Positions 15,745 through 41,471 of a stretch of DNA of 64,000 nt are shown here, one piece after another (position 1 is the first letter of the stretch; every line of letters begins with the position of its first letter). The stretch is from a virus. The stretch lies in IMG/VR virus record IMGVR_UViG_3300038443_001768; one strand, given 5' to 3'. A program made the position numbers and the translations under genes. The notes under the pieces were generated by a model that worked only from the letters and a program-made list of their open reading frames with translations, had not been told where the DNA came from and searched no databases.

Positions 15745-15819
15745 TGGTAGCCCCACCGGGGATTGAACCCGGTCTAAGAGTGTGAAAGACTCTCGTGCTG
15801 ACCATTACACCATGGGGCC
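15745..15819 (-). tRNA. tRNA-Glu(TTC), only tRNA with encoded CCA
   Basis: Cloverleaf, loop CT TTC AC. Confidence 0.9.
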
Positions 15820-15827
15820 GTGAAGGG

Positions 15828-15906
15828 TAGCGGAGGTAGGATTCGAACCGTTTATGACGACCTCCTGGTTATGAGCCAGGCGAGCTTCCAACTGCTCTAC
15901 TCCGCG
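15828..15906 (-). tRNA. tRNA-Met(CAT), initiator-like, with insertion in T stem
   Basis: 5' CGCGG, C1:U72 mismatch, loop CT CAT AA. Confidence 0.8.
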
Positions 15907-15912
15907 TGATAG

Positions 15913-15985
15913 TAGGCCGTGCGGGATTCGAACCCGCGTTCTTCACTGTGAGAGAGTGACGAGATAACCGCTACTCCAACGGCCC
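15913..15985 (-). tRNA. tRNA-Glu(CTC)
   Basis: Cloverleaf, loop CT CTC AC. Confidence 0.9.
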
Positions 15986-16005
15986 AAGCTTTGACAAGTG
16001 TAGCA

Positions 16006-16078
16006 CGCCCCCGGCAGGATTCGAACCCGCGACCAGCCGGGTAGAAACCGGCCGCTCTGTCCACTGAGCTACAAGGGC
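16006..16078 (-). tRNA. tRNA-Arg(TCT)
   Basis: Cloverleaf, loop TT TCT AC. Confidence 0.9.
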
Positions 16079-16082
16079 AAGA

Positions 16083-16155
16083 TCGCGGCGAGGGGACTCG
16101 AACCCCATTCGGGCGCTCCTTATGAGGGAGTCCGGGTCAACCGATCCGCGCCGCA
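16083..16155 (-). tRNA. tRNA-Met/Ile2(CAT), atypical
   Basis: T arm and loop CT CAT AA; short D arm. Confidence 0.7.
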
Positions 16156-16158
16156 TTA

Positions 16159-16230
16159 TGTCCCCGGCTGGATTCGAACCAGCGACCTACCGCTTAGGAG
16201 GCGGTCGCGCTTCCGCTGCGCCACGAGGAC
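16159..16230 (-). tRNA. tRNA-Arg(CCT)
   Basis: Cloverleaf, loop CT CCT AA. Confidence 0.9.
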
Positions 16231-16235
16231 TCAAG

Positions 16236-16306
16236 CGGGGCACCTGGGATTCGAACCCAGAAGGCGCGGTTTTGGAGACCGGCCGGCACAACCTACGCTG
16301 TACCCC
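16236..16306 (-). tRNA. tRNA-Trp(CCA)
   Basis: Cloverleaf, loop CT CCA AA, G73. Confidence 0.85.
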
Positions 16307-16396
16307 ATGTACTGGCTGCTTACTTCCGGATCGTGGTCCGGTGTCGGCACTTAGCGGACTCTCCACGTCCACGACAGGAGAACACGGCCAAGTGAG

Positions 16397-16469
16397 GGTG
16401 ACCGATCAGATTCGAACTGACGCCGTCTTGGTTCACAACCAAGAGTGCTACCGCTACACCACGGTCACC
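16397..16469 (-). tRNA. tRNA-His(GTG)
   Basis: Loop TT GTG AA; encoded G-1 and C73. Confidence 0.9.
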
Positions 16470-16474
16470 GAGAG

Positions 16475-16547
16475 CGCCCTTGGCTGGACTCGAACCAGCG
16501 ACCCCCAGCTTCGCAAGCTGGTGCTCTATCCACTGAGCTACAAGGAC
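16475..16547 (-). tRNA. tRNA-Arg(GCG)
   Basis: Loop TT GCG AA in canonical cloverleaf. Confidence 0.9.
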
Positions 16548-16553
16548 TTGGAG

Positions 16554-16627
16554 CGGAAGTGACGGGATTCGAACCCGCGGTCTCGTCCGTGACAGGGACG
16601 CGGGGACGGCCTCTCCCCTACACCTCC
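16554..16627 (-). tRNA. tRNA-Asp(GTC)
   Basis: Loop CT GTC AC, G73. Confidence 0.9.
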
Positions 16628-16639
16628 AAGTTACTTCAG

Positions 16640-16712
16640 CGTCCCTGGCAGGATTTGAACCCGCGACCCCCTGGTTCGAAGCCAGGTGCTCTATCCACTG
16701 AGCTACAGAGAC
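16640..16712 (-). tRNA. tRNA-Arg(TCG)
   Basis: Loop CT TCG AA. Confidence 0.9.
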
Positions 16713-16716
16713 TAAG

Positions 16717-16801
16717 TGCGCGAGGTGGGACTCGAACCCACACGACCCTAAGGCCAACCGGGTTTGAGCCGGTCGTGTCTACCAATTCCTACCACTCACG
16801 C
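16717..16801 (-). tRNA. tRNA-Leu(CAA)
   Basis: Long variable arm, loop CT CAA AC. Confidence 0.9.
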
Positions 16802-16812
16802 GAAGACTGCTA

Positions 16813-16896
16813 TGACATCGAGGGGATTCGAACCCCTATGACCTCTCGGCCGGCAGGGTCTAAGCCTGCTGCGTATACCAATTCCACCACGATGCC
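16813..16896 (-). tRNA. tRNA-Leu(TAG)
   Basis: Long variable arm, loop CT TAG AC. Confidence 0.9.
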
Positions 16897-16900
16897 GGAG

Positions 16901-16984
16901 TGCGCTGAACAGGACTCGAACCTGCACGGGTTTTACCCCACAAGGCTCTCAACCTTGCGTGTCTACCAATTCCACCACCAACGC
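16901..16984 (-). tRNA. tRNA-Leu(GAG)
   Basis: Long variable arm, loop TT GAG AG. Confidence 0.9.
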
Positions 16985-17106
16985 GAAATCCCATCAGAGG
17001 CCAGGGCGTCGATGGGAAGGACTACCTTGACCGCCCTCCGCCCAAGCGGCGAAGAATTCGCGTGCTGCCACACGCTTGCCCTCGGTGGCAGCCGAGGGGC
17101 GATCTC
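16985..17106 (-). ncRNA. Unknown 122-nt multi-hairpin RNA with kissing loops
   Basis: Closing stem GAGATC/GATTTC, five hairpins, complementary loops CTGCCA/TGGCAG; fills the Pro-Leu spacer. Confidence 0.6.
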
Positions 17107-17112
17107 AGTGAG

Positions 17113-17184
17113 TCGGGGACGCGGGAGTCGAACCCGCCACCACTCCGTTCCAAGCGGAGGATGCAACCGCTACACCTGACCCCG
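17113..17184 (-). tRNA. tRNA-Pro(TGG)
   Basis: C1:G72, loop CT TGG AA. Confidence 0.9.
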
Positions 17185-17187
17185 TAG

Positions 17188-17260
17188 TGGTCGATGCAGG
17201 TCTCGAACCTGCGACCTCATGCGTGTCGAGCATGCGCTCTACCAACTGAGCTAATCGACC
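17188..17260 (-). tRNA. tRNA-Val(GAC)
   Basis: Loop TC GAC AC (C33 instead of U33). Confidence 0.85.
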
Positions 17261-17274
17261 AAGGTACTACTAAG

Positions 17275-17347
17275 CTCCGCCGCCAGGATTCGAACCCGGA
17301 ACTCTCGGGTAACAACCGAGCACGTTCTCCGTTTACGCCACAGCGGA
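17275..17347 (-). tRNA. tRNA-Asn(GTT)
   Basis: Loop TT GTT AC, G73. Confidence 0.9.
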
Positions 17348-17352
17348 TCGTA

Positions 17353-17425
17353 TTGCAGGCCTAGGATTCGAACCCAGACTTCACGGCTTCAGAGGCCGGC
17401 GGGCTGCCAGTTACACCAGCCTGCA
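17353..17425 (-). tRNA. tRNA-Gln(CTG)
   Basis: U1:A72, loop CT CTG AA. Confidence 0.9.
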
Positions 17426-17429
17426 TTGA

Positions 17430-17501
17430 ATGCGGGACTCGGGTTCGAACCGAGCCGATGAGCTTCAAAGGCTCACGTGCTGCCAGCTACACCATCCCGC
17501 A
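17430..17501 (-). tRNA. tRNA-Gln(TTG)
   Basis: U1:A72, loop CT TTG AA. Confidence 0.9.
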
Positions 17502-17514
17502 GAGGAAGGAAAAC

Positions 17515-17537
17515 AACTCTAGCATAGTCTCGTGACA
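17515..17537 (-). promoter_or_regulatory. Promoter of tRNA operon 1
   Basis: TGTC-N9-TGCTAGAGTT, same motif before all three tRNA operons. Confidence 0.7.
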
Positions 17538-17540
17538 AGC

Positions 17541-17970
17541 GTGGGCCGGACAGCGATGAACGCCGCCCGGCCCACTACCCGGAGAACCATGACCACCAAC
17601 TGCTCCTGTCGCGAAACCTGCGTGCGACAAGCCTGCACTGCCGGACCGGAGAGGAGCGCCGACGACCTAGCGCTCAACTCTCCGGCCCATAAGCCCTTTC
17701 GGGGAGAGGAGGGACTCCACCCTCAACGTCACGACCCGGCGTGGGCAGCCGTTCGGTGATAGCCAATACCACCCAGGTCGATCCGTGCTCATCGACGGGC
17801 CGCCAAGCCCAACACATCGCTGACTCGGAGTGGCTGCTCCTGTCCACCGCTACGACTCCCAGGCTGATGACCCTGTCGTGCAGCTTTTCCCGACGCTTCG
17901 ATGACACTTTAGCCGCGTGCTGCTACGGCTTGTTCGGTCACTCTCTGCCGCACTGGCCGGTGCGGCGTTG
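17541..17970 (-). ncRNA. Unknown ~430-nt highly structured RNA
   Basis: Own promoter (TGCTACAGT at ~17976-17984), no credible ORF, about ten hairpins, strong terminal hairpin. Confidence 0.6.
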
Positions 17971-18020
17971 AAGGAACTGTAGCACATGTCGAGGGGTGTG
18001 TGTCAAGGCCGAGACGGAAA

Positions 18021-18708
18021 TCAATCTGCGCGCCCGTCGTTCAAGGCGTCGATCCGCGCCTGCGCGTCTTCAATGTCCTCCGCGCACGTCGGCCCGATCC
18101 ACTTGCCTTCCCGCGAGTCGTAGACCTCGCAGCCAGGAGGACCGTGCAGGCAAGCGACGATCGCGGCGTCCTGATCGTCGTAGCCGGTCTCCATGCCCAG
18201 CGCGAACATCCCGGCGCAGCCGACGCGGTAGCGGCTCATCGCCATCCATCCGGCCTGCTCTTTTCGGTCAACGTGGCGATCCCGACGCGCCCCCGCCAGC
18301 GCTTGTCGTCGGCATGGGGGTCGCGGAACTCGTTGCCGCTCAGCGCGCCGTGCAGCGCGTTCCTGACGCCGTGCGCCGGACGGCCTGCGAGCAGGTCGGA
18401 CCGCGCCGTATCGAGCAGATGCAGAAGATCGCGCTGCGCCGCGGTCATCGCTCCGGCGCTCCTTTCTGGCCCATCTCGGCGATCTGCGCGAGCGCTTCCA
18501 CGACCTCGCGCCAGTCGTCGCCCGGCACGCAAGCGAGCCGTGTGCCTTCGAGGTGGTCCACAATCAGATCGGGGACACCGGCCGCGCGCATCCGGCGCTG
18601 GGCGTAGTCGATGCGGTTCCACGCAGCCCCGAGCGCGTCGTAGGCGTGCTTCACGTCGGCCTGGAGATCGTCGATCGACGGGCGCCCGTTTAGTTCTGAA
18701 TTCGTCAT
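18021..18708 (-). CDS. Three small hypothetical genes (18021-18239, 18236-18448, 18445-18708)
   Basis: ATGA-coupled ORFs divergent from cca. Confidence 0.55.
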
Positions 18709-18768
18709 GCCGCTAGTATGGCAGCTTCGGGCGTTGCAGTCCAGAGGACGACGTGGTACGCTCCCTCA

Positions 18769-20190
18769 ATGACCAACGTACGCGCGGCGGACGCCCTGAT
18801 GGCGGATATCTTCGGAAAGGACGCGTATCGCGTCGGCGGCAGCGTGCGTGACGAAGTTCTCGGCCGCCACATCAAGGACGCCGACTATGTCGTTCAGCAC
18901 CACACGCTGGACGCGATCAAGCGAAAGCTTCGTCGCGGCTTCGAGCATCGCGGTCAGGTCGCGATCACGAAGCTCGAACTCCGTACCGGACAACACGCCG
19001 GATGGCGCGTCGGCGCGCCTTGGAACATCGAGATCATGATGCCGCGAGGCGAGCAGAAGGTCGAGACCGACGAGGGTAACGAGCGGCACAAGTTCATCAT
19101 CACGCTCGACCCCGACATGCCTCTGGAGGTCGACGCTCTGCGGCGCGACTTCACAATGAACGCCCTGTATCGAAACGTCGTCACCGGAGAGATTGACGAC
19201 CCTCTGGGCGGCGTCGCGGCGATCGAGGACGGTGAGGTCACGACGACGGATGCGTCGTCGTTCCGCGACGACCCTCTGCGCACGCTGCGCGCTCTGCGCT
19301 TCGTGTCGCAACTTGGCTTCGATCTCGACGACGACACGTATGGACAGATGTTCGTGCACGCGAAGTCTGTCGATGGGCTCACCGACAAGGGTGTCTCTGG
19401 AACTGCGTTCGACGAACTCTGCAAGATCCTGATGGGCCGACACGTCGCGAAGGCGCTGCGGCTCGCGAGGGATTCACGGGTTCTGGAGTCGCTGCTGCCG
19501 GAGCTTGCTCCGATGCTGGGTCACGACCCGCAGAACTCGCACCATGCGTTCTCAACCGACGAGCACACCTTCGTCGCCCTCGACGTTGCGGCCGGCTTCG
19601 GGCTGCCGCTGAGGGTGCGTCTCGCGCTGCTCTTCCACGACGCGGGCAAGCCGCTCGTCGAGTGGGTCGGAAAGGACGGCATGAAGCACTACTTCGAATC
19701 CAAGGATCAGCCAGGATCGATCGATCACCAGGAGGCGTCGGCGGAGTTGTGGCTCGCCGTCGCGGACCGCCTGAACGTACCGCGTTCACTGCGGCGCGAT
19801 GTCGAGACGTTGATCCGGCGTCACATGGTACCGCTGACGCTACGTCTGAAGCCGGCGAAGGTCCGCAAGTGGCGATGCGAGCTTGGCGACGACCTGCTCG
19901 CAGACCTGCTGCGGCACCGGCTCTGCGATGTCATGGCCAAGGGCGTCATCGACTACGAGGCCATGCGCGCAGTGAATCGCATGGAGGAGATCCGCGAGGA
20001 CGCCGTCCGCGACGGGGTGCCTGTGACGGTTCGCGACCTCCCCGTCTCGGGCGGAGACATCGCCGCTATGGGCGTCAGCGGCCCTCGGATCGGTGAGATT
20101 CAGCGGCAGCTTCTCCACGAGGCGGTTTCGCAGCCCTCCAACAACACACGAGACCGCATGTACATGCGGGCGCTGAAGCTGGCTGCGTGA
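18769..20190 (+). CDS. cca: CCA-adding tRNA nucleotidyltransferase (class II) with HD domain
   Basis: VGGSVRDEVLG..KDADYV, DALRRDFTMNAL, FRDDPLRTLRALRF, LLFHDAGKP; TACGCT box 6 nt before ATG. Confidence 0.92.
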   Translation: MTNVRAADALMADIFGKDAYRVGGSVRDEVLGRHIKDADYVVQHHTLDAIKRKLRRGFEHRGQVAITKLELRTGQHAGWRVGAPWNIEIMMPRGEQKVETDEGNERHKFIITLDPDMPLEVDALRRDFTMNALYRNVVTGEIDDPLGGVAAIEDGEVTTTDASSFRDDPLRTLRALRFVSQLGFDLDDDTYGQMFVHAKSVDGLTDKGVSGTAFDELCKILMGRHVAKALRLARDSRVLESLLPELAPMLGHDPQNSHHAFSTDEHTFVALDVAAGFGLPLRVRLALLFHDAGKPLVEWVGKDGMKHYFESKDQPGSIDHQEASAELWLAVADRLNVPRSLRRDVETLIRRHMVPLTLRLKPAKVRKWRCELGDDLLADLLRHRLCDVMAKGVIDYEAMRAVNRMEEIREDAVRDGVPVTVRDLPVSGGDIAAMGVSGPRIGEIQRQLLHEAVSQPSNNTRDRMYMRALKLAA

Positions 20191-20597
20191 CCACCGAGCT
20201 TCTTAGCGGCGACAGGTCTGCTGTTGAGGAGGCGGCGCGGAACATAGAACAAGCCGCGCGCAACCGTTTCGATGCTGGACATGTCTACATGCTTGAGTCG
20301 TCATCAGACAGAGCATATAAAGTCGGATACTCGGTCTCACCGATTGACAGACTCTACGCAATACGCAAGCAGGCCAACGATAAGTCAATCTCCTATGTGG
20401 GCTCGATTAGGGGGGCTCTTCGTCTCGACGAATATGCGATCCACCGAGAACTTGACGAGCTTGGATTGCGCTGGAGCGGCCGCTATTTAGGCACGTTCGA
20501 GTGGTTTCATGCGACGGCGGAGCTTGATGTTTTGGCTGACGTGCTTCGCGGTCTGTCCATCGAACGTAGAAACGCGCGAGGCTTCAGCTACTCTTGA
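20187..20597 (+). CDS. T5orf172/GIY-YIG-like domain protein
   Basis: HVYML...YKVGYS..P.DRL...E..IH...EWF pattern. Confidence 0.7.
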   Translation: MTTELLSGDRSAVEEAARNIEQAARNRFDAGHVYMLESSSDRAYKVGYSVSPIDRLYAIRKQANDKSISYVGSIRGALRLDEYAIHRELDELGLRWSGRYLGTFEWFHATAELDVLADVLRGLSIERRNARGFSYS

Positions 20598-20622
20598 CAG
20601 CGGTAGCCGGCTTCGCTAGCGT
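20594..20622 (+). promoter_or_regulatory. Primary-sigma-type promoter
   Basis: TTGACA-17 nt-TAGCGT. Confidence 0.6.
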
Positions 20623-20667
20623 TGCCTTCGCATACTCATCCATCCGAAAGAAGGTTATCCCCTGTCT

Positions 20668-21333
20668 GTGATTGAGGCCAGCGCTGTCTACGGGCAGCGA
20701 CCCATCAACTTCGGAGTCTGGCCACTGGACTGGTCAGAGTACATGCATTACCTGTACTTGCCGGTCGTGATGCCAGGACATCGCGGCGTACGGCTGCCTG
20801 AGCGGTTGCAGTTTCTACGACCGATCGTCGACCTCGTCTGCGCACAGGAAGACATCGCTGTTAGTCTGCCTGACTACTATGTCTATGTGACTGCGCGGCG
20901 GGGCTGGGCGTCGCCCGACAACCCGCTCAACCGGCCCGGCTGGCACTCAGACGGCTTCGGAACCAACGACGTCAACTACATCTGGGCCGATCGCTTTCCG
21001 ACACGCTTCGCGATCCAGGAGTTCGTCGACATCAGCGACAACCACGTCGACTCTCTGCGCCAGTTCGAGGAGCAGAGCGACGAGGACTCGGTCGTCGTCT
21101 ACCCAGACTGCTCGTTGCTGCGGCTCGATCCTGAGGTCATCCACGCGACGCCGGTGGTTCCGCCGCCGGGAGGCGAGCGTAGCTTCTTCAAGATCAGCGT
21201 CTCGTCTGAGCGATACAACTTGGCCGGCAACAGCCACAACTATCTCTTCGACTACGAGTGGCGGATGTGGTCGCGATCAGAGATCCGCAATGACCCCAAC
21301 TACGCTGGCGGCGATGCCGGCCCGCAGTCATGA
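20668..21333 (+). CDS. Putative 2OG-Fe(II) oxygenase-like protein
   Basis: NRPGWHSDG (HxD), distal H (VIHAT) and RxFFK motif. Confidence 0.65.
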   Translation: MIEASAVYGQRPINFGVWPLDWSEYMHYLYLPVVMPGHRGVRLPERLQFLRPIVDLVCAQEDIAVSLPDYYVYVTARRGWASPDNPLNRPGWHSDGFGTNDVNYIWADRFPTRFAIQEFVDISDNHVDSLRQFEEQSDEDSVVVYPDCSLLRLDPEVIHATPVVPPPGGERSFFKISVSSERYNLAGNSHNYLFDYEWRMWSRSEIRNDPNYAGGDAGPQS

Positions 21334-22169
21334 TCGACGCAGACTTTGAGGGCGAGCGACTGCTCATCGACCTTCTCGAACGCTACGAGTCCGACACTGG
21401 CCGTCAATTGCTGGAAGAGGACTATGAGAGCGTCATCATGACGCACGCATTCGAGGCCGCCAGTCTCGTCGAAAGCGTCTACAGCGAACTAGCAAAGCTT
21501 CCCACATGAGCGACGACCTAAGGAAGTTCGTCGAGGTCATGGGAGGCGTCCGTTGTATCTGTGGGCACCTACTGCGCCGGCATCGCCGACCAGACCCGAG
21601 CTTCAAGGTCGGCGCGCTGGTCGAGAAGTGCGGCGCGTGCTGGGACTGCGAATGCAAGGGCGAGGTAGGACTTCCCGATGGAGGCGAGGTATGACACTAC
21701 GCGAGGGCCGTCACCATCAGTGGCGCGTGTTCTTCACGGCCGCCGACGAGGACATGGTTGGCGTCCAGTGGCGCGACGAACCAATCTCAGATGACGAACT
21801 CGCTGAGTGGCGACATCAGTTCGTTTGCGACGTTTGGGTTGAGCGGCGCGAAATCATCTGCGGCCCTCCAGTGAGGCTTGATCGATGACGGTATGGGAGT
21901 TCTGGACCTGCGATTGGTGCAACCAGGACAACAGCGGACGCGAGCCACTCTACGAGGACCTAGCAGACGATGAAGGCTGGGTTCAGGTTGATAAGCACGA
22001 GATGAGGGACAACGGTAGCGGGGCGCTTTGGTCGTCTCACGTCGATGAGCACTTTTGTGCAAAATGTCTCACTGATCCAGAACTGTTCGAATATATCGAC
22101 AGCGAGCAATTTAGGCCTGTCTATGGCCGGGACGAAGATCGCCTCAACGCGGCGAGGGCCGCGCTGTGA
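21330..22169 (+). CDS. Run of small hypothetical genes (including 21506-21694 and 21885-22169)
   Basis: ATGA-coupled short ORFs, some Cys-rich. Confidence 0.5.
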
Positions 22170-22608: not shown

Positions 22609-23007
22609 ATGCGGAGTACGATCCTGGGGCTCTTGGCCGCCCTCTCACTGGGAGGCCCTTCGGCCTCTGCTCAGGACCACCAGTCCTGCCACACCAAGTC
22701 TTGCACGTTGCGTGTGGAGATGAAGTTCTACAAGAAGCATCCGATGCCCTGGTGCACGTGGGGACCTGAGAGTCCAGGCCATCCTGAGTGGTCGCCGGCC
22801 CGTTACCGTGTCTGGAACACCAGCGGTAGCTCGCCAGAGCGCGCCAGCGGCAAGTTTCAGATCATCGGCCCTACTTGGCGCGCCTACGGAGGTCAGCGTA
22901 TCTCAGGTCGCCGACACGCGGCGGAGGCTGCGCCGGTCTATCAGGAGCGCATCGCGCGAAGTATCGCGCGCGCGAGGCCGTCGCTCTCAGACTGGGTAAA
23001 TTGTTGA
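22609..23007 (+). CDS. Secreted Rpf-like lytic transglycosylase
   Basis: Signal peptide; ES catalytic motif, GKFQIIGPTWRAYGG, Q.RIA, terminal W..C as in resuscitation-promoting factor domains. Confidence 0.75.
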   Translation: MRSTILGLLAALSLGGPSASAQDHQSCHTKSCTLRVEMKFYKKHPMPWCTWGPESPGHPEWSPARYRVWNTSGSSPERASGKFQIIGPTWRAYGGQRISGRRHAAEAAPVYQERIARSIARARPSLSDWVNC

Positions 23008-23014
23008 CCTGAAG

Positions 23015-23050
23015 AACGACGAAAGGCCGCCCTCGGGCGGCCTTTGTTGT
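23015..23050. terminator. Bidirectional terminator
   Basis: AAAGGCCGCCC/GGGCGGCCTTT hairpin. Confidence 0.75.
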
Positions 23051-23051: not shown

Positions 23052-23136
23052 CGGAGAGACAGGGATTCGAACCCTGGAAGGTGTGACCCTTACGCGCTTT
23101 CCAGGCGCGCCCATTCGGCCTCTCTGGCACCTCTCC
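23052..23136 (-). tRNA. tRNA-Ser(GGA)
   Basis: Long variable arm, loop CT GGA AA. Confidence 0.9.
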
Positions 23137-23139
23137 TGA

Positions 23140-23211
23140 AGTCGCGGAGCGGAATCGAACCGCTGTAAACGGGGTTGCAGCCCGTTGCCTAAGCCACTCG
23201 GCCACCGCGAC
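23140..23211 (-). tRNA. tRNA-Cys(GCA)
   Basis: U73, loop CT GCA AC. Confidence 0.9.
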
Positions 23212-23215
23212 GGAG

Positions 23216-23302
23216 CGGAGAGACAGGGATTCGAACCCTGGAGGCTTTGACACCTACTCGGCTAGCAACCGAGCGCATTCGGCCGGACTCTGCCACCTCT
23301 CC
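23216..23302 (-). tRNA. tRNA-Ser(GCT)
   Basis: Long variable arm, loop TT GCT AG. Confidence 0.9.
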
Positions 23303-23342
23303 TGGCACCCGATCGCGGCCACGTGGACGGCGTCGGGCTGAG

Positions 23343-23426
23343 CGGAAGCAGAGGGATTCGAACCCCCGACGGTGGTTAGCCGCAGCCGCTTTCAAGGCGG
23401 TGTCCTCGACCAGCCGGACTACTTCC
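23343..23426 (-). tRNA. tRNA-Ser(TGA)
   Basis: Long variable arm, loop CT TGA AA. Confidence 0.9.
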
Positions 23427-23431
23427 GTGAG

Positions 23432-23518
23432 CGGATGGTAGAGGATTCGAACCTCTGAGGGTGTTACCCCTACTCGCTTTCGAGGCGAGCGCATTCAACC
23501 AGGCTCTGCCAACCATCC
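23432..23518 (-). tRNA. tRNA-Ser(CGA)
   Basis: Long variable arm, loop CT CGA AA. Confidence 0.9.
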
Positions 23519-23522
23519 GAAA

Positions 23523-23604
23523 TGACGCGCCAAGGACTCGAACCTTGAATGCCGTGAGGCGGCCGGGTTACAGCCGGCTGGGTGCTCCCGCTCCCACACG
23601 CGCC
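23523..23604 (-). tRNA. tRNA-Tyr(GTA)
   Basis: Long variable arm, loop CT GTA AC. Confidence 0.9.
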
Positions 23605-23613: not shown

Positions 23614-23636
23614 AACTGTAGCAGATCTACGCGACA
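23614..23636 (-). promoter_or_regulatory. Promoter of tRNA operon 2
   Basis: TGTC-N9-TGCTACAGTT. Confidence 0.7.
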
Positions 23637-29581: not shown

Positions 29582-30070
29582 ATGCGTCCAGTCATGTACA
29601 TCGTCGCCAACGAGGGGCTCGGCATGTCGCCAGGCAAGCTCGCTGCCCAGGCCGCCCATGCCGCCGTAGAGGCCTACCGGCTATCGTGTCCGATCCCGGT
29701 ATGGCACCCAGACCAAGACAAGCTGCGCTTCGAAGGACGCGAGGTCGTGCAGGAGTGGTACAAGGGCGGCCACTACACGAAGATCGTCCTCGGCGCTCGC
29801 GACTCTCAACACCTGTTGACGCTGGAGCGCTACATCAAGGAGCGTGGATTCAAGACCGCGTTGATCATCGATGAGGGTCGGACAGAGATCGAGCCACACT
29901 CGCCGACAGCGATCGGCGTCGAGATCGTCGACAAGGACGACGAGCACACATGGGCAACGTTTGGGTCGATCAAGCTCTTCGGGCAGGCCAGCGGTCCGCC
30001 CAAGCGAGTCGACTACGACGCCGCGACTGTGAGCCGCTACGGAAAGTTCTTCAACGCGCTCAAGAGCTAG
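29582..30070 (+). CDS. pth2: Peptidyl-tRNA hydrolase, Pth2 type
   Basis: MYIV...LGMSPGKLAAQAAHAAV, KIVL, IIDEGRTEI.P.S.TAIG motifs. Confidence 0.9.
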   Translation: MRPVMYIVANEGLGMSPGKLAAQAAHAAVEAYRLSCPIPVWHPDQDKLRFEGREVVQEWYKGGHYTKIVLGARDSQHLLTLERYIKERGFKTALIIDEGRTEIEPHSPTAIGVEIVDKDDEHTWATFGSIKLFGQASGPPKRVDYDAATVSRYGKFFNALKS

Positions 30071-30201: not shown

Positions 30202-30236
30202 AACGACGAAAAGCCCCCATCTCAGGGGGCTTCTCT
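30202..30236. terminator. Bidirectional terminator
   Basis: AAGCCCCC/GGGGGCTT hairpin between pth2 operon and tRNA operon 3. Confidence 0.7.
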
Positions 30237-30239: not shown

Positions 30240-30313
30240 TGGAGCCGGCTGGATTTGAACCAGCGACCTCACGGGCTTCAACCGTCCGCTCTACCGGGCT
30301 GAGCTACGACTCC
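30240..30313 (-). tRNA. tRNA-Phe(GAA)
   Basis: Loop TT GAA GC (G37). Confidence 0.85.
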
Positions 30314-30390
30314 GAGCCCCGGGCTCGCACCGGGAACCATCAGGCTCGTAGTACCTGACCTTTGGACGCCCTTGGCGTCGGTGCATTGAG

Positions 30391-30462
30391 AGCAGGCGAC
30401 GGGGCTCGAACCCGCTCTTGAGGCTTGGAAGGCCGCCGTGCAACCGGTAACACTTCACCTGC
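30391..30462 (-). tRNA. tRNA-Gly(TCC)
   Basis: U73, loop CT TCC AA. Confidence 0.85.
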
Positions 30463-30466
30463 TTGA

Positions 30467-30538
30467 AGCTCCCGCAGAGACTTGAACTCTACCATCTCGG
30501 GTACGAACCGAGCGCAACGCCATCTTTGCTTCGGGAGC
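30467..30538 (-). tRNA. tRNA-Thr(CGT)
   Basis: Loop TT CGT AC. Confidence 0.85.
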
Positions 30539-30540
30539 GA

Positions 30541-30672
30541 ACAGGCCGGCGCTCTACCGTTGAGCTACAAGCGGGCGAACCATCAAGGAGCGACCTCGAA
30601 GTAATCCGACTCGACGTGCACGTCGAGAAGGGTTGCCGCCAGGGCGGATTCGAACCACCAACCTCCGGCCGT
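30541..30672 (-). ncRNA. Circularly permuted tRNA mimic (YrlA/Y-RNA-like topology)
   Basis: Order: terminal stem, T arm GGTGG TTCGAAT CCGCC, closed extended acceptor stem, D arm TAGCTCAACGGTAGAGC, terminal stem. Confidence 0.75.
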
Positions 30673-30674
30673 AA

Positions 30675-30748
30675 AGCCGACTGTGGGACTCGAACCCACG
30701 ACATTCGTCTTACAAGGACGACGCTCTAGCCATCTGAGCTAAGTCGGC
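30675..30748 (-). tRNA. tRNA-Thr(TGT)
   Basis: Loop CT TGT AA. Confidence 0.9.
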
Positions 30749-30751
30749 GGA

Positions 30752-30823
30752 AGCTGCGACCGAGAATTGAACCCGGGACTCGACCGTACCAAGGTCGCGT
30801 GTTACCACTAGCACCATCGCAGC
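30752..30823 (-). tRNA. tRNA-Thr(GGT)
   Basis: Loop TT GGT AC. Confidence 0.9.
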
Positions 30824-30827
30824 GAAG

Positions 30828-30901
30828 TGGTGCCGACAGGAATCGAACCTGCGTTCTTCGGGGTAAAAGCCCGCTGCAAGGCCAACGTTTGCTACGACAC
30901 C
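30828..30901 (-). tRNA. tRNA-Lys(TTT)
   Basis: Loop CT TTT AC. Confidence 0.9.
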
Positions 30902-30904
30902 GTA

Positions 30905-30979
30905 TGCCCCGGGCAGGAATCGAACCTGCGTGCCAGTGGGTAAGAGCCACTTTCTAAAGCCAGCTTTTGTTACCGAGGC
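30905..30979 (-). tRNA. tRNA-Lys(CTT)
   Basis: Loop CT CTT AC; degenerate D arm. Confidence 0.8.
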
Positions 30980-30984
30980 GAGGA

Positions 30985-31057
30985 AGTGGAAGACGGGACT
31001 CGAACCCGCGGCCTTCTCCATGGCAAGGAGACGCTCTACCAACTGAGCTACATCCAC
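30985..31057 (-). tRNA. tRNA-Gly(GCC)
   Basis: U73, loop TT GCC AT. Confidence 0.9.
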
Positions 31058-31062
31058 GAAAG

Positions 31063-31136
31063 TTGGCCCTCTGGGACTCGAACCCAGGACCTCCCGCGTA
31101 TCAGACGGACGCTCTAACCAACTGAGCTAAGGACCA
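31063..31136 (-). tRNA. tRNA-Ile(GAT)
   Basis: Loop CT GAT AC. Confidence 0.9.
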
Positions 31137-31142
31137 TTGAAG

Positions 31143-31214
31143 TGCTCGATGTAGGATTCGAACCTACGACCCCACGCTTGTAAGGCGCGTGCTCTCCCGC
31201 TGAGCTAATCGAGC
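31143..31214 (-). tRNA. tRNA-Val(TAC)
   Basis: Loop CT TAC AA. Confidence 0.9.
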
Positions 31215-31218
31215 GAAG

Positions 31219-31291
31219 TGGAGGATACGGGACTTGAACCCGTGACTTCCAGCATGCCATGCTGGCGCTCTCCCAACTGAGCTAATCCCCC
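31219..31291 (-). tRNA. tRNA-Ala(GGC)
   Basis: G3:U70, loop AT GGC AT. Confidence 0.9.
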
Positions 31292-31357
31292 ATGGCTGGT
31301 TGATAACGGTGACTAGCTCACCGAGTCCGGAGTTAGGGCCTCCGGACTAGGAACCCA

Positions 31358-31431
31358 TGGACCAGGAGGGATTCGAACCCTCAACCCTCTGCGTGCAAAG
31401 CAGGCGCTCTACCAATTGGAGCTACAAGCCC
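31358..31431 (-). tRNA. tRNA-Ala(TGC)
   Basis: G3:U70, loop TT TGC AC. Confidence 0.9.
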
Positions 31432-31471: not shown

Positions 31472-31494
31472 AACTCTAGCACATCTCCATGACA
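31472..31494 (-). promoter_or_regulatory. Promoter of tRNA operon 3
   Basis: TGTC-N9-TGCTAGAGTT. Confidence 0.7.
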
Positions 31495-35043: not shown

Positions 35044-35242
35044 CTACCTGCCTGTACTCGTCGGGCAGCCAGCCGGCGAGGTCGTCGGCGTCAATGAGGC
35101 TTAGCTCACACGAGTGCGCGGCGTTCTCAACCACGGCGATCGACACAGGGCCGAAGTCGTTGCCTTCGTCGTCGGCTGACTTCCAGACCTCCATATCAGG
35201 ATCAAGTGTCTGAAGCCGCTCGATGAGATCGCCGACGGTCAT
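35030..35242 (-). CDS. Hypothetical phage protein
   Basis: MTVGDLIERLQ.LDPD.EV...DDEGN, AAGGAGG RBS. Confidence 0.65.
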   Translation of the reverse strand: MTVGDLIERLQTLDPDMEVWKSADDEGNDFGPVSIAVVENAAHSCELSLIDADDLAGWLPDEYRQVVVLW

Positions 35243-35408
35243 CAGGCCTCCTTGAGTGCCGCGAGCAGGCGCTCCCAGGCGGCGTGACCTTCAGCGCGTA
35301 GCTCTTCCTGCCGTGCGGTCTTCTCGCGAGTATCATGATTCGCTCGATATCGAGCGCGCCTGGAGCGACGAGCGCGCTGCGCCGCGATACGCGCCGTTGG
35401 TAGTCCGC

Positions 35409-35639
35409 TCACAGTTCGAGCGCGCCTTCGGCGTCCACGCCGTCGCGGGCGTCATCCTGGGCGGTGAACTTGATGGAGAGGAACTTGTCGCCACCTCCGC
35501 GGGGCGTTCGTGCCCACGCGGCGAGGCGATAGTCGGTGCCCTCGATGGTGCAGCGACCGGTGAAGTCGGGGGAGCGGTCGGACTTCTTCTCGCGGGCGCG
35601 GAAGAGGACGCCACTTAGTTCGTCGTCGTATTCAGCCAT
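35409..35639 (-). CDS. Small putative ssDNA-binding protein (DUF736-like)
   Basis: GVLF..REKKSDRSPDFTG...YRLAAW...FLSIK with acidic tail. Confidence 0.6.
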   Translation of the reverse strand: MAEYDDELSGVLFRAREKKSDRSPDFTGRCTIEGTDYRLAAWARTPRGGGDKFLSIKFTAQDDARDGVDAEGALEL

Positions 35640-35676
35640 GACCTGGAAGTGTACCAGGTAACGACCGATTGCGCAT

Positions 35677-35704
35677 CAAAAAGGGCCGCCCTGGGGCGGC
35701 CCTA
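35677..35704 (-). terminator. Rho-independent terminator
   Basis: AGGGCCGCC/GGCGGCCCT hairpin plus T tract on minus strand. Confidence 0.7.
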
Positions 35705-35725
35705 TGTACTCAGGAGAAGACTTGC

Positions 35726-36163
35726 TTAGCGGACGTCGAGCGCGGTTGCCGAGGCGAGCCAGTTCGTGCCGTCGAGGCAGCGGAGAGTGACGACGTCGAC
35801 CTTCGCCGCGCCCGTGGAGAGTGTCGGGGCGGTACCGGCCGGCCACTTCACCGTCGAAGGCCACGTAACGAGCCTCGAACCGGTCGCGTCCTGCTTGAGA
35901 GCGATGATGATGTCAGAGCCAGCAGTGGCTGTCGGGAACGTGAACGTGCAGTTCGCGGACAGCGTGATGTGGTTGAAGGCGTTGTTGACGATCGTCTGTG
36001 CCGCGCCGGAGGCGGCGACTGTGTTGACTGGTCGCACGACTGGAGCACCAATCGTGAACTGGGCACCCGCGCGATCCTGGCCAGAAACGATCTTGGCGAG
36101 GAGGTCGGATACCTTGCCGTATGAGAACGTGAAGCCGGACTTCGCGGAGGCGTAGGTGGTCAT
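35726..36163 (-). CDS. Putative virion fiber-like small protein
   Basis: LKQDATGSRLVTWP..VKWPAGTAPTLST..A.VDVV motif seen in phage fiber domains. Confidence 0.6.
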   Translation of the reverse strand: MTTYASAKSGFTFSYGKVSDLLAKIVSGQDRAGAQFTIGAPVVRPVNTVAASGAAQTIVNNAFNHITLSANCTFTFPTATAGSDIIIALKQDATGSRLVTWPSTVKWPAGTAPTLSTGAAKVDVVTLRCLDGTNWLASATALDVR

Positions 36164-36444
36164 AGCTCAAGGATACGACCGACCCTGCCATTCCTAGTCC
36201 CAGTCGCGGTCCTCCGGAATCGGCGTAGACGGAGCGCGCTGTGAGATCAGCACAGCCACCGTGATCGTGACGAGCACGCAGAGCGTCAAGATCCCCAACA
36301 TGCGTCAATCCAAATAGGGCGCGGTGGTCTCAAAATACGAGACCAACTCAGCCTCGAAGGCCTCATCATTGGTGAGCACTTCGAGCACCTCCAGCGGCGG
36401 CATCACCGTCTTCAGGACACGTACAACGAGTTGATCGATCAACT

Positions 36445-37442
36445 TCACTCCTCGATTGAATCAGCGGCGTCGGCGTGGTGCTGCGCGGCGGCTTTGGCGT
36501 CTCGGCGTCGACCGTAGATGCCGACCGTCTTGACGTCTGACGTTCCGGGCATGAAGAAGAACAACGTGTACTCGGGCATGCGCGGAACGCCGGGGCCGTG
36601 GTAGATCGAGCCAGATTGGATCATATAGCGTCCGCACTCGCTGTAGGCGGCGAAGGCGCTGTTCCAGCGCAGCTTAGTCACACGGAAGCTCCTTGAGCCA
36701 CAGCCGCGTCTCATAGAGGCCGGGCGGCGCTGGAGCCTCATCGGCATCAAGTAGCGCCTGATGTACCTGGCAATACATGAGATCAACACCGGCGGCGCGC
36801 TCAGCGTCGGTGTGGGCGATGCGAAAGCCATCATCGGCCAACCAAATGACGTGGCGGTCGCCGAGACCGTGCGCGGCTTGATAGGCGACGAGTTCCTCAA
36901 CGGTCATCGAGCGCTGTCCCAATACGAGTCGTGAACAGCGGAGCGGCGGCGGCCGTCGATGGCGGCGGCTTTTGCCCACTCGTCGCGCCACCCCTGCCAC
37001 TCAGCGTGTCGATCGCTCTCCTTGTAGGCCTTCTCCTCAATCTCTTCACCGCAGGCGTCAAAGTCAAGCCACTCGTTGGCATCGGCGGCGTTGGCGAAGT
37101 AGCTGCGGGGATCATCGACGATCACGCGGACGTCAACTCCACCGGCACAGCGGCGAGGATGCGGTTCTCGCGCAGCGTCTTCTGAAGCTCGGCGCACCAG
37201 ATCATCCATAGCTGGTTCTGGCGGCGAAGAGCGACGATCTCACGTTCCATCACGGTCGGGTCACGCACCATAGCGGCGCAGGGGTTGTTCAACTTCAACG
37301 CGCCGAGACAGCCTCGGCAGAGCCGGTTGTCGTCATCGGAGCAGAGAACGACCCCGCAGCGGCAGCGCACGAAGGGCTCATCCTCTGGGTGACAGTGTCC
37401 GCGGTCACAGATTCTGTGCTTCCGCGTCCCGAAATCGGTCAT
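36445..37442 (-). CDS. Operon of small hypothetical genes (first gene 37122-37442)
   Basis: Coupled short ORFs; TAGACT box 6 nt before the ATG at 37442. Confidence 0.5.
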
Positions 37443-37545
37443 GCGGGAAGTCTATCACAGGTATTCAAGTGGGTCAAACCTTCGGTGTCACGCCTAAAAC
37501 CGCATAGGTAAGCCAAAAACGCACCGATTGTTGAACAATATGAGT

Positions 37546-37570
37546 GATTCAAGTGGGTCGAATGTGGGTA
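37546..37570 (-). repeat. Second copy of the 25-bp element
   Basis: Exact reverse complement of 10587-10611. Confidence 0.85.
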
Positions 37571-39042
37571 GGCGGCGGCGGAGAGGAGATATCTTCACGT
37601 TGAGACATTTACTTGATTTACGTCGGGATTTGGCTCTACTAAGCCAAAAATTTCACATACCCACGAGTATGCGAACCGTGTGCTAGGCTTAGGCCACGCC
37701 CGCCTCGGCCGGGGCGGCGCTCGGCAGAGCGAAGCCTGGCTGGCAGGGTAGGGTCGAAATGTGTCCTCCTCGACGGGACACACAGAGAGACCAGTACCAG
37801 GTCTTCTCCGACGATCTCAATAATCACGACGATGAGATCGACCACACGGGGGAGGCGTCCGTCTTGTTTCGGCGCGTCAAGTACGTCGCCGGACCCCGGG
37901 GGTTGCGGCGCTCGCGGTGTGCGCTATCGTTGTTGGGGTCGCTGGGGTTGCTCCTCCTCGGAGCCGACACGGACCTCAGCGGCCGACGGGGGAGTGGCTG
38001 GACGTCATCCCCACGGCCTCTCCCTCCGGGGATAAGCGGGACACCGGGGCGTGCGACTGGTTGGAACCAGGACCGCCCAGGCGCCGATTGGTTGCCGTCT
38101 CGGGTCCTGCTGCCCTGCTTAGGTGCGCGCGTGGGGTGGCATCTGGCGGTGCACCGTGACCTCTTGGCGCGGCTCGATCGTCATCACATCGCCCGGCATC
38201 AGCGTCACCGGCTCGTCCTCGTCGGGCAGGTAGATGCGCGTCATCCAGTCTTCGCCGACTTCGACGACGATGCGGGCGCAACGCATGGGTTGCGTTTCCG
38301 TGTATTCGGCGTATGATTCGGTCATGAAAGCTCCTCCCTACTATTTCACTCCACAGCCGCGTCCTCGCCGGCCGCGCCGCACACGTCGTCCTCGCGCCAT
38401 CATTGACGACGAGGATTGGCTCCGCCGTGAGGGCCTGTCGCGTCCTGAGCGGTCGCTGGCGCGTGAGTGTAGGCTGTTCGCGGTGTTCGTGCTCGGCGTT
38501 GCCTTCGTGTGTTACTTGGTCGGCGTTACGCTGGTCATGCTGTTCGGATAGACACGTCTGTTCCTACGAAGGCCTCGTCTGGCACGCGCACTCCAACGAT
38601 CACGCCGCCGCGACCCGGCCCGGTGAGTTCGCGCTGACGTGCGCGCGCCTCTTCGATCGTCACGTACACGGTGAGCGGGTCATCATCGCCGGGCACCGAC
38701 ATGCCCTCGTATGAATATTCCTGGAGTACGACGAATCCGATCATGTGCGATGTGCGCTCGGCCTTTCGTGCCTCGCGACTAGCAGCGGTCGGCATAGAAG
38801 CTCACCGTTAGGCCGTTGAACCTAGTCTCGATGCCGTGACGGCGAAGGATATTGGCGGCCTTCGCTCCTAATCTGCTGAGATAGCCGCCACCGAAATGCG
38901 CAGGCGGCACGATGCCGGCGCGGATGATGAGCTTGAGGTCTTCGATGTCTTGGTTGGTCATACGAGAATGGCAGTCGAAAAGCACGTAAACGTAGAGGGC
39001 CGGGAGCGATGTCCCGGCCCTCGTCGCTTGAGGCCTCCGTGC

Positions 39043-39567
39043 CTAGCAGTCGCCGCTCTTTCTGGCGGCGGCCATCGCCGAGGCCAACGACGGCGCACGG
39101 CGAGGCAGGGCGTGAATCCCGTACGGGAGCGGGACCTTCCTCGACAGTGCCGCTTCGAAGAAGTTCTCCATCCGCCGGTCGTAGTCGGCCTTCAGATTCC
39201 GATACGTGGACTTGTAGGCCAGCACGGGGTCCTCGACCAGGGTCGGTGAGTCCGCGTCAGACGCTGCGTCCTTGGCGTTACATGCCGTTGCCGCCGCCTG
39301 CTTCATGTCCTCCCAGTCTCTGAGGATTGCGTCGGTCTGCTCTCTCACGTGCGGCATCTGGGTGTTCTTGTGCGCTTCGTGCACGTACTGCCCGCCGTCG
39401 TGGAGGGCCGTCGAGAGCAGTGTCGCCGCGCCCAACAGGACCACGACGCCGACGATCCATGCCACGGGATGCCGCGTGAATGAGGTGCCGGCCTTGGCGG
39501 CGCTCTTCGCGGCCCGATCGGCGCGGTCTTCCCAGATCTCGCCGTTGCTGCGGTCGTCGTGATTCAC
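39043..39567 (-). CDS. Single-pass membrane protein
   Basis: Hydrophobic helix VAWIVGVVVLLGAATLL; coupled to lipoprotein gene. Confidence 0.7.
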   Translation of the reverse strand: MNHDDRSNGEIWEDRADRAAKSAAKAGTSFTRHPVAWIVGVVVLLGAATLLSTALHDGGQYVHEAHKNTQMPHVREQTDAILRDWEDMKQAAATACNAKDAASDADSPTLVEDPVLAYKSTYRNLKADYDRRMENFFEAALSRKVPLPYGIHALPRRAPSLASAMAAARKSGDC

Positions 39568-40208
39568 TTCTGGTCTCCGATCGCGTTTTCGATGATGCGC
39601 TGTGCCAGCGCCGGCTTGCCTGCCTTGAGCGCCGCTTGAGCAGCCGTGTCTGCCCGCCCGAGATTAGCGTCGACGGTAAGCGAGATCTTCGTGGACTTGC
39701 GCTGGAACTGCGTCGGCTTGTTCGAGCAGTACGTTTCCAGGTTGAAGAAGTCTACGTACGCGCCGCCCGGCGTGAACCCGTACCGGTACTGCGGCGGGTT
39801 CGGGTGGTAGAGGCCGTCGACTGAGCGCTTCGGGATCACCGAGGCGTCCGAGTAACTGCCAGGATGATCATCGAGAACCCCCTCAGGGGCGAAGTACGAG
39901 GTGCTAGAACTTGTCAGCTTGCCCGTCACCGGCACCGTTACCAGCGGCGACGACGGGTTGTTGAAGCTGAACGTGCACCAGAGGATGTTGGACGGGTCGT
40001 CGTAGATCTCTTGCGCGTGGTTGTAGTTCTTGAACTCGACGTCGTTCTTCGGCAGGTAGGGCGCGCGACGCGAGGCCTTCTTGGCGACCTGCTTGTAAAT
40101 CTCAGCCTGGCTCGGCGGATGCGGCTTGCTCTGCTCGCCCCCGCCGCAACCGGTGGCGGCGAGGCCTCCGAACACCAGCACGGTCAGCATGATGATGATC
40201 TTGCGCAT
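39564..40208 (-). CDS. Lipoprotein (paralog B)
   Basis: Signal peptide with lipobox-like ATGC; clear similarity to 40457-41101. Confidence 0.75.
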   Translation of the reverse strand: MRKIIIMLTVLVFGGLAATGCGGGEQSKPHPPSQAEIYKQVAKKASRRAPYLPKNDVEFKNYNHAQEIYDDPSNILWCTFSFNNPSSPLVTVPVTGKLTSSSTSYFAPEGVLDDHPGSYSDASVIPKRSVDGLYHPNPPQYRYGFTPGGAYVDFFNLETYCSNKPTQFQRKSTKISLTVDANLGRADTAAQAALKAGKPALAQRIIENAIGDQK

Positions 40209-40456
40209 CAGAGAGTGATCTCCTGTACGATCGCGGGCGCGACAGCGGTCTTCTCCTTGCGGATCTTGAAGATCCCGACTCCGTTGTGCCGTCCGGCGTG
40301 ATCTGCGACCACTACGACATCTCCGTGGTTGAAGAGGGTCGCAGACTTGGCACTTGTCTCACGTAGCGCGTCCTCAGGGGTGGTGCCCTTGGCCTCGCCA
40401 AACTCCCACCAGGCCACGAGCTTGGGGTCGATCCTCCAGATGTGGTAGTTGTTCAT
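40208..40456 (-). CDS. Hypothetical protein
   Basis: 82 aa coupled ORF between the lipoprotein paralogs. Confidence 0.6.
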   Translation of the reverse strand: MNNYHIWRIDPKLVAWWEFGEAKGTTPEDALRETSAKSATLFNHGDVVVVADHAGRHNGVGIFKIRKEKTAVAPAIVQEITL

Positions 40457-41101
40457 CTACTTATCCGAATCGAGAGCGTTGAGAGCACGCTGCGCGCCGG
40501 CTCGGTCGCCCCGCGCGAGTGCGGCCTCCGCGGCCTGATCGGCGGCCTTGGCCTGTTCATCAACCGTGACGGCGACCTTGGTGGTCTGGCGCTGGAAGCG
40601 CGTCAGTGCGGTCGTGCACAGGGTGGGCATGTTGAAGAAGTCCACGTACTGGCCGCCAGGAGTGAAGCCGTAGCGATACGGCGGCGGCGAGCCGTGATAC
40701 ATACCGTCGACGGATCGCCGCTCGGGCGTGTACTCGGGATGATCGATGTTGTGATCGCCACGCCACGCTCGCGTGGATGGGAAGAACGAGACACTCGACG
40801 AGGTCAGCTTGCCGGCGATCGGAATCGTCACAAGCGGCGAAGACGCGTTGCCCCACGTGGTGGTGCACCAGACGATCGTGTTGGGGTTCGCGTACAGCCG
40901 CTGAGCGGCCGTGTAGTTCTTGAACTCAGGAGACGGCCATGCCGGAACAAATGGCCGAGTCGAGTTCGAGCGGCCGTCGATCTGCGAGAGGATGTCTCCG
41001 GCGCTGTCTGCGCCAGCGACGGCAAGTGAGCCGCCGCAACCTGCTACGGCCAGCACTAGGGCAGCGCCCCAGGCCGGTCCGATCTTGCGTAGGATCTTCA
41101 A
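40457..41101 (-). CDS. Lipoprotein (paralog A)
   Basis: Lipobox VAGC; AAGGAG RBS; shares SSPLVT.P..GKLTSSS and YRYGFTPGG.YVDFFN with paralog B. Confidence 0.75.
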   Translation of the reverse strand: MKILRKIGPAWGAALVLAVAGCGGSLAVAGADSAGDILSQIDGRSNSTRPFVPAWPSPEFKNYTAAQRLYANPNTIVWCTTTWGNASSPLVTIPIAGKLTSSSVSFFPSTRAWRGDHNIDHPEYTPERRSVDGMYHGSPPPYRYGFTPGGQYVDFFNMPTLCTTALTRFQRQTTKVAVTVDEQAKAADQAAEAALARGDRAGAQRALNALDSDK

Positions 41102-41133
41102 GGTTCTCCTTCCAGGAGTGGATGATGTCGCGA

Positions 41134-41162
41134 ACTGTAGCCGGTCCGCATCGGCGTGTCAA
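41134..41162 (-). promoter_or_regulatory. Primary-sigma-type promoter of lipoprotein operon
   Basis: TTGACA-17 nt-TACAGT. Confidence 0.7.
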
Positions 41163-41176
41163 GCGTGAAAAGCTTT

Positions 41177-41471
41177 GCTAGCCTCGATAGCCGGGGTTCT
41201 GTTCCGCTGACGCGGCGCTGACCATCCATCTACGCCTCGCGGCGTCCGTCATCTCTCAACGTGACGGTTCTCTCACCATGACCTCCTCCGGGTGTCCTCA
41301 GGAGGTCGAACTTGAGATCTCATCCAGGCCTCGGCGAACTGCTGGCTTATTAGGCTTTGCTCTCGTGGTCCAAGCGGCCAAAGACCTCCCACCGGCCGTT
41401 TACGTCGAGTTAGCCCCGACGTGGATGCCCCGAACTTCCTCTACGTCTCCGCAGCGGCCAGCCCGGCTAGC
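41177..41471 (-). ncRNA. rnpB: RNase P RNA (compact, ~295 nt)
   Basis: P1 GCTAGCC/GGCTAGC, P2 GCTGGCC/GGTCAGC, P3, GAGGAAGTTCGGGG pairing with AACAGAACCCCGGCTA (P4 with bulged U), AGATGGATG after GNRA-capped P18, GGT in L15-like loop. Confidence 0.88.

Follow-up and report, generated by a model that had tools for sequence, protein, structure and literature searches.

A tailed phage in the IMG/VR collection appears to encode an RNase P RNA (RPR) of its own, in addition to 37 tRNAs, a predicted CCA-adding enzyme and a peptidyl-tRNA hydrolase. The stretch analyzed comprises 64,000 nucleotides of record IMGVR_UViG_3300038443_001768 (hereafter the window), in which a sequence-only reading had seen a near-autonomous, coordinated tRNA supply chain. 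We favor, with moderate confidence, the interpretation that its RNA genes form a co-transcribed set of stable RNAs that boosts tRNA maturation with the help of host proteins. The window is part of a phage genome carrying HK97 capsid, portal, ribonucleotide reductase and ThyX genes, and it is collinear with, and ~82% identical to, two other IMG/VR contigs, one measuring 139.5 kb (G002, 99% complete) and the other 103 kb. Judged from G002, the complete genome measures about 140 kb, and this is not a jumbo phage.

The candidate ribozyme is located 10 kb from the nearest tRNA operon:

41174..41473, minus strand: RNase P RNA, ~300 nt, with P1-P5, P15-P16, two hairpins before CR-IV, P19 and a 97-nt remodelled specificity domain

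Its match to the Rfam model RF00010 reaches 27.1 bits (E 1.8e-5 in a 10-kb search) against a gathering threshold of 100, so the RNA is invisible at that threshold. A combined CR-I/CR-V/P4 pattern has a single match in the window and no match in 40 simulated windows, and the RNA is 96% identical to that of a relative, with flanking open reading frames (ORFs) at 66-88%. Pattern scans and CCA-linked loci yielded 17 related RPR sequences, 16 of them on phage contigs. The family is not reliably alignable by MAFFT, and helices were parsed by anchors. Among 10 distinct P4 variants, 76 of 80 cells are paired, compared with a mean of 60.3 and a maximum of 70 in shuffled controls. The shuffle ignores kinship, and the homologue searches themselves required part of the P4 motif. 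In the window RPR, all eight P4 pairs form, and the bulged U69 of the CR-I/CR-V pseudoknot, the A that follows it, and A361 are kept. Since homologues vary at the third P4 pair (U.G, G-C or C-G), the bulge must be the second U of GGAAGUUC, which gives the canonical 3+5 P4 geometry. The Rfam alignment had suggested a P4 shifted in register, which this covariation at the third pair rules out. In seven clade RPRs, helices P2, P4, P5 and P15 show pairing at 167 of 168 cells and two-sided changes at 14 of 24 pairs, and P1, P2, P3, P5, P15 and CR-IV follow each other in the expected order in the window RNA. All seven also carry the L15 GGU associated with 3′-RCCA binding; the roles of U69, A248 and GGU in RNase P RNA have been described (PMC11143913). 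Judged by its sequence, the RNA at 41174-41473 is thus a real RPR, with P4 covarying across phage homologues and U69, A361 and GGU kept. The RF00010 match and the P4 covariation uphold the proposal that the window encodes a candidate 5′-maturation ribozyme.

The presumed substrates of this RNA are arranged in three operons:

15745..17501, minus strand: tRNA operon 1, 19 tRNAs (Gln x2, Asn, Val, Pro, Leu x3, Arg x4, Asp, His, Trp, CAU x2, Glu x2)
23052..23604, minus strand: tRNA operon 2 (Tyr, Ser x4, Cys), with a terminator-like hairpin at 23022-23045
30240..31431, minus strand: tRNA operon 3, 12 tRNAs (Ala x2, Val, Ile, Gly x2, Lys x2, Thr x3, Phe), with a terminator-like hairpin at 30214-30228

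ARAGORN confirmed the count given by the sequence-only reading, namely 37 minus-strand tRNAs (19 + 6 + 12) for 20 amino acids, 36 of them without an encoded CCA. At the default score 36 tRNAs are reported, and tRNA-Trp(CCA) at 16235-16306 emerges only at a relaxed score; the tmRNA and intron calls made at that relaxed score are noise. The single encoded CCA belongs to Glu(UUC) at 15745. By simple wobble the set reads 57 of 61 sense codons. No tRNA reads UUA or AUA, yet both are unused among 6,686 sampled codons, and CCU/CCC are readable only through extended wobble. Most tRNAs stand 2-6 nt apart, spacers measuring ≤6 nt in 24 of 34 cases, the tRNA order of operon 1 is the same in relatives, and terminator-like sites overall are no commoner than chance. 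Some individual tRNAs are unusual. The tRNA-Trp at 16235-16306 (minus strand) and a CAU tRNA at 16083-16155 (minus strand) have atypical D arms, the latter being kept in a close relative. An initiator-type tRNA at 15826-15906 (minus strand) has a T-stem insertion of ~6 nt and two of the three anticodon-stem G-C pairs; it is identical in the close relative and absent from distant relatives. Moreover, C38 replaces A38 in seven of the ten U36 tRNAs of the window, compared with one or two per genome in distant clade members, which is compatible with, and may reflect, avoidance of t6A formation or of anticodon nucleases.

The RPR and the operons share a promoter motif, TGCTASAGT, with five copies in 64 kb where 0.74 would be expected; they precede each of the three operons, the RPR and a manA-like RNA described below, and there is none elsewhere:

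41478..41486, minus strand: extended -10 promoter motif, reading TGCTAGAGT; precedes the RPR by 5 nt
31473..31481, minus strand: same motif, operon 3
23615..23623, minus strand: same motif, operon 2
17516..17524, minus strand: same motif, operon 1
17976..17984, minus strand: same motif, manA-like RNA

We take this motif to be an extended -10 promoter of the host housekeeping type. Exactly these five sites recur in the 139.5-kb relative, similar motifs precede the RPR and operons of a distant relative (capsid 60%, CCA enzyme 44% identical), and in nine clade sequences 21 of 29 motif sites lie ≤130 nt before a tRNA or RPR. For six of seven homologues of the CCA enzyme (46-53% identity), the neighboring tRNAs number 31-33, mostly lack CCA and are arranged in three operons of the same order. 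The RPR, the CCA enzyme and the operon order occur together in seven of eight lineages of the phage clade, so the expected co-occurrence in related phages is found for these components, but not for the position of Pth2, which varies.

The lineages with an RPR are those of the window with G002 and G003, G001, L088, L089 (via L095), L090, L091 and L093; for L087, none was detected in the ~31 kb inspected of 112 kb. In L088, L091 and L093, P3 is lengthened to 107-123 nt and complementary strands for P6 can be recognized, and the hairpin after P5 seems to be linked to the P16 loop by a P6 pseudoknot. Immediately upstream of the RPR in L095 lies an 80-nt tmRNA fragment (L095:5226-5305; RF00023 score 56.6 bits), accompanied by further tRNA-like RNAs, with a similar arrangement in L090 and L091. 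No RPR was found beside metagenomic homologues of the protein encoded downstream of the window RPR. Two GTDB exact-pattern scans, which variants escape, revealed no cellular RPR with the window P4 signature except in L050, a 12.7-kb contig in an archaeal metagenome-assembled genome. The L050 RPR closely resembles phage RPR L019, and the contig is probably misbinned. Canonical type A RPRs (261-280 bits) are found between tRNA genes of other phages (L025, L027 and L029), and phage RPRs therefore have more than one form.

Two protein-coding genes would act on the same tRNAs:

18718..20190, plus strand: class II tRNA nucleotidyltransferase, predicted CCA-adding, with an HD domain, 490 aa (PolyA_pol and HD matches)
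~29582..30070, plus strand: peptidyl-tRNA hydrolase Pth2 (start codon may be 29564, 29582 or 29594)

The first starts 1.2 kb from operon 1 and is directed away from it, so that the CCA-type enzyme stands where the sequence-only reading had placed it. The enzyme falls under every NCBIfam cut-off (best equivalog score 121 of 451 bits), and its best PHROG is tRNA nucleotidyltransferase (E 3.9e-47). It has the GG.VRD/DxD, RRD and (E/D)DxxR motifs and an intact flexible loop with RxE/D, no shorter than that of the solved CCA enzyme 1miv. The DxD, RxE/D loop, RRD, DDxxR and H..HD elements are near-invariant across 121 sequences, and CCA addition is therefore the predicted activity. Pth2 scores 82.7 bits on PF01981 (cut-off 23), lies below the NCBIfam equivalog cut-offs, and has K..AAQ..HA and DxGxT motifs in its translation. 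Its gene is convergent with the end of operon 3, next to which the sequence-only reading had placed it. This adjacency is not conserved: Pth2 is present in G001, G002, G003 and L090 at differing locations, ~32 kb from operon 3 in G001.

Several points weigh against the interpretation favored here. The partners in P2, P5 and P15 were found partly by complementarity, which leaves P4 as the one non-circular test. In the window RPR, and likewise in L003, GGU lacks its following purine. Every clade RPR examined has NGA in J5/15, with G in place of the normally conserved A248, and in the E. coli RPR this substitution is reported to give a higher activation barrier (PMC11143913). The window RPR has no complementary P6 strands and lacks most of the type A specificity domain; the clade version of this domain spans 67-97 nt and includes a small, conserved helix-hairpin module. 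Neither the CCA gene nor the Pth2 gene has the promoter motif, and both lie on the opposite strand; support for coordination concerns the RNA genes and comes from the common promoter motif and from the joint retention of RPR, CCA enzyme and three-operon array in the clade. Finally, CCA-enzyme matches occur in 371 GenBank phage records, whereas blastn with four RPR queries against 50,697 phage records matched no clearly cultured phage and no annotated RPR. The enzyme thus appears not to need a phage RPR.

It is conceivable that the RPR-like RNA is a decoy for host RNase P protein or pre-tRNAs, curbing host tRNA maturation with weak or no catalysis. The reduced specificity domain and G248 would suit this role, as would the failure to find an RNase P protein (RnpA) in five genomes, including G002, and the only published viral RPR-like RNA that we found, from orthopoxviruses, is inactive in vitro (PMC3001073). 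However, the phage RPRs retain, with covariation, the GGU loop and the metal-binding elements of P4, and blocking RNase P would harm the phage, since its own operons need RNase P cuts. We consider a decoy very unlikely. We give similarly little credence to the idea that these are independently acquired accessory genes forming no functional unit, with host enzymes performing essentially all maturation. The variable position of Pth2 and distance from RPR to array are in keeping with it, the CCA enzyme of L092 has no tRNAs within 10 kb, and the extended -10 motif belongs to a general class of strong promoters. Nevertheless, the divergent placement of the CCA gene and operon 1 and the operon order are maintained at 44-53% protein identity, and the RPR is kept in seven of eight lineages. 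Both explanations fit less well than a co-transcribed RNA set.

The uniform G248 could also mark a specialized RPR, adapted to those phage precursors that are poor substrates of host RNase P (with C or A at -1, odd D and T arms, or tRNA mimics) and serving a partly private pathway. Position -1 of clade pre-tRNAs is C in 155, A in 86, U in 41 and G in 1 (C or A in 241 of 283), whereas L017, L021, L055 and L066, which keep A248, have mostly U at -1 and encoded CCA; the atypical tRNAs, moreover, are conserved in the close relative. This -1 pattern is confounded by G+C content and kinship, however, and mycobacteria, with A248, prefer C at -1, while structures speak against Watson-Crick N-1/248 pairing (PMC11143913). 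L025 and L029 likewise have A248 yet mixed N-1. Specialization of this kind seems to us unlikely, if less so than a decoy. The same doubt attaches to its bolder form, in which the viral RNase P RNA, with its G248 and miniature specificity domain, would be active and would prefer CCA-less C/A(-1) phage precursors and mimics to host precursors, and would sustain translation after destruction of host tRNAs or host RNase P RNA.

A co-transcribed set working with host proteins also agrees with what the close relative lacks. G002 additionally encodes RtcB, RNA ligase, Thg1, RlaP and an RF-1-domain hydrolase. Among its scanned ORFs, those of ≥75 aa in all but part of the window-matching region, there was no RNase P protein, no RNase Z-type protein, no synthetase and no recognizable modification enzyme. 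The search proposed for the rest of the genome, made in this relative, recovered RtcB and RNA ligase, and not RNase Z. Because these functions are missing, the host would have to provide 3′ trimming, modification, charging and RNase P protein. The system adds to what the host does and does not take its place; to call it near-autonomous was an overstatement, given these absences in a 99%-complete genome. A metallo-beta-lactamase-fold protein (L089:16878-17768; Apyc1 and Lactamase_B_2 matches) is encoded beside operon 3 in L089, and its product could be RNase Z-like or anti-Pycsar.

According to the model we favor, one class of extended -10 promoter would drive transcription of the three pre-tRNA operons, the RPR and the manA-like RNA. 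The phage RPR, joined by host RNase P protein, would cut at tRNA 5′ ends, dividing the closely spaced operons, and short 3′ trailers would be trimmed by host nucleases. The phage enzyme would then add CCA, after which the GGU loop of the RPR could grip that tRNA. An order of this kind is known for the T4 Pro-Ser precursor, where CCA addition comes first and RNase P cleavage is favored thereafter (PMC11143913). Repair and recycling of tRNAs may fall to the HD domain and Pth2, joined in the close relative by RtcB, RNA ligase, Thg1 and RlaP, and the set as a whole would raise tRNA-maturation capacity during infection beyond that of the host. Host shut-off or a tRNA-targeting defense, the occasions proposed in the sequence-only reading, may be what the set responds to.

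Other structured RNAs lie within or beside the operons:

17699..17965, minus strand: manA-like structured RNA with a 74-nt insertion (RF01745, 35.9 bits, below the cut-off of 55.2)
30541..30672, minus strand: YrlA-like tRNA mimic with permuted arms (starting with the T arm and ending with the D arm), located between Thr(UGU) and Thr(CGU)
16987..17109, minus strand: nested RNA of two hairpins with mutually complementary loops (in L002, loops kept and stems changed)
16309..16394, minus strand: conserved non-tRNA element between His and Trp
30314..30388, minus strand: three-hairpin element between Gly and Phe
31292..31357, minus strand: two-hairpin element between Ala tRNAs

The manA-like RNA sits inside a gene-free unit of ~450 nt upstream of operon 1 and is 88% identical in a relative. 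The YrlA-like mimic occupies the same position in L002, L087 and L089, but it scores 18.4 of 69 bits on RF02553, and no Ro60/TROVE gene was found in five genomes. Between two Ser tRNAs, a 39-nt hairpin ending in CCA (23303-23341, minus strand) is absent from the close relative. It is plausible that the nested RNAs are released by tRNA processing.

With respect to the host, the window has ~61% G+C, and its capsid has 28% matches to mycobacteriophages. Ribosomal protein S12 (PF00164, 123 bits) is encoded in G001 (L082:769-1176, plus strand), 1.4 kb upstream of the G001 RPR, and the S12 of a relative has named matches in Thermoleophilia and also in Proteobacteria, with similar scores. From these weak matches, our guess is an actinomycetotal (Actinomycetota) host. 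Two other window genes deserve mention. The second gene downstream of cca (20668-21333, plus strand) has an HxD..H..R pattern, its PHROG is phrog_1843, with function unassigned there, and its structural look-alikes include PhyH-type 2OG-Fe(II) dioxygenases (TM ~0.56). The gene at 22609-23007 (plus strand) encodes a signal peptide and a transglycosylase-like (Rpf-type) domain, with a weak Pfam match below cut-off, and has homologues in L087 and L090.

RNase P RNA is considered a cellular housekeeping ribozyme, and standard annotation overlooks the one in the window. If active, a viral RPR transcribed with its tRNA substrates would add 5′ maturation to the phage tRNA toolkit, and the clade would offer natural test cases for a minimal specificity domain and for the need for A248. 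The CCA enzyme with its healing domain is also a candidate counter to defenses that clip tRNA tails; viral resistance to the tail-cutting Cas12a3 has been described as unknown (PMC12851939).

Compared with bacterial type A RPR (E. coli M1 RNA, rnpB), the window RNA shares P1-P5, P15, the 3+5 P4 with its bulged U, CR-IV, CR-V and the L15 GGU. It differs in scoring 27 of 100 bits, in its CR-I (GGAAGUUC, with the U.G pair), in G at 248 and the absence of P6, in its 97-nt specificity domain, in an extra hairpin after P5 and two before CR-IV, and in having no RnpA gene. These extra hairpins recall type B RPR, and in G002 neither the type B (RF00011) nor the archaeal (RF00373) model gave a match. 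Phage T4 depends on host RNase P and the host CCA enzyme, whereas the window phage has its own RPR and CCA enzyme genes. The T4 tRNA cluster is otherwise similar, with spacers <5 nt, CCA-less tRNAs and CCA addition favoring RNase P cleavage (PMC11143913). The orthopoxvirus RNase P-like RNA is likewise virus-encoded and was proposed to resemble RPR, with some structural similarity and no activity (PMC3001073); the window RPR, in contrast, has all core motifs, with covariation, and a tRNA array in the same genome. The YrlA RNAs (RF02553; PMC4201824) share the permuted T-arm/D-arm module of the mimic, and that of M. smegmatis is cleaved by RNase P and receives CCA (PMC4201824). Known manA RNAs (RF01745) are found in cyanophages (PMC2864571), whereas the manA-like RNA of the window lies upstream of a tRNA operon and not of a metabolic gene. 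The closest parallels are XacN1 (PMC5852040) and jumbo phages (PMC7824862), which share tRNAs for 20 amino acids, a CCA nucleotidyltransferase and a peptidyl-tRNA hydrolase, and also carry Thg1, RtcB or Rnl ligases, and RlaP. The window phage differs from jumbo phages in its ~140-kb genome and in 36 of 37 tRNAs lacking CCA, and it encodes an RPR, whereas those two papers mention RNase P zero times. Literature searches, which covered few subscription papers, found no report of a phage-encoded RPR. Hence, tRNA arrays accompanied by CCA enzyme, Pth2, Thg1, RtcB and RlaP are known, and the undescribed component, in the literature found, is the phage RPR, to which our analysis adds the common promoter, the clade-wide conservation and G248.

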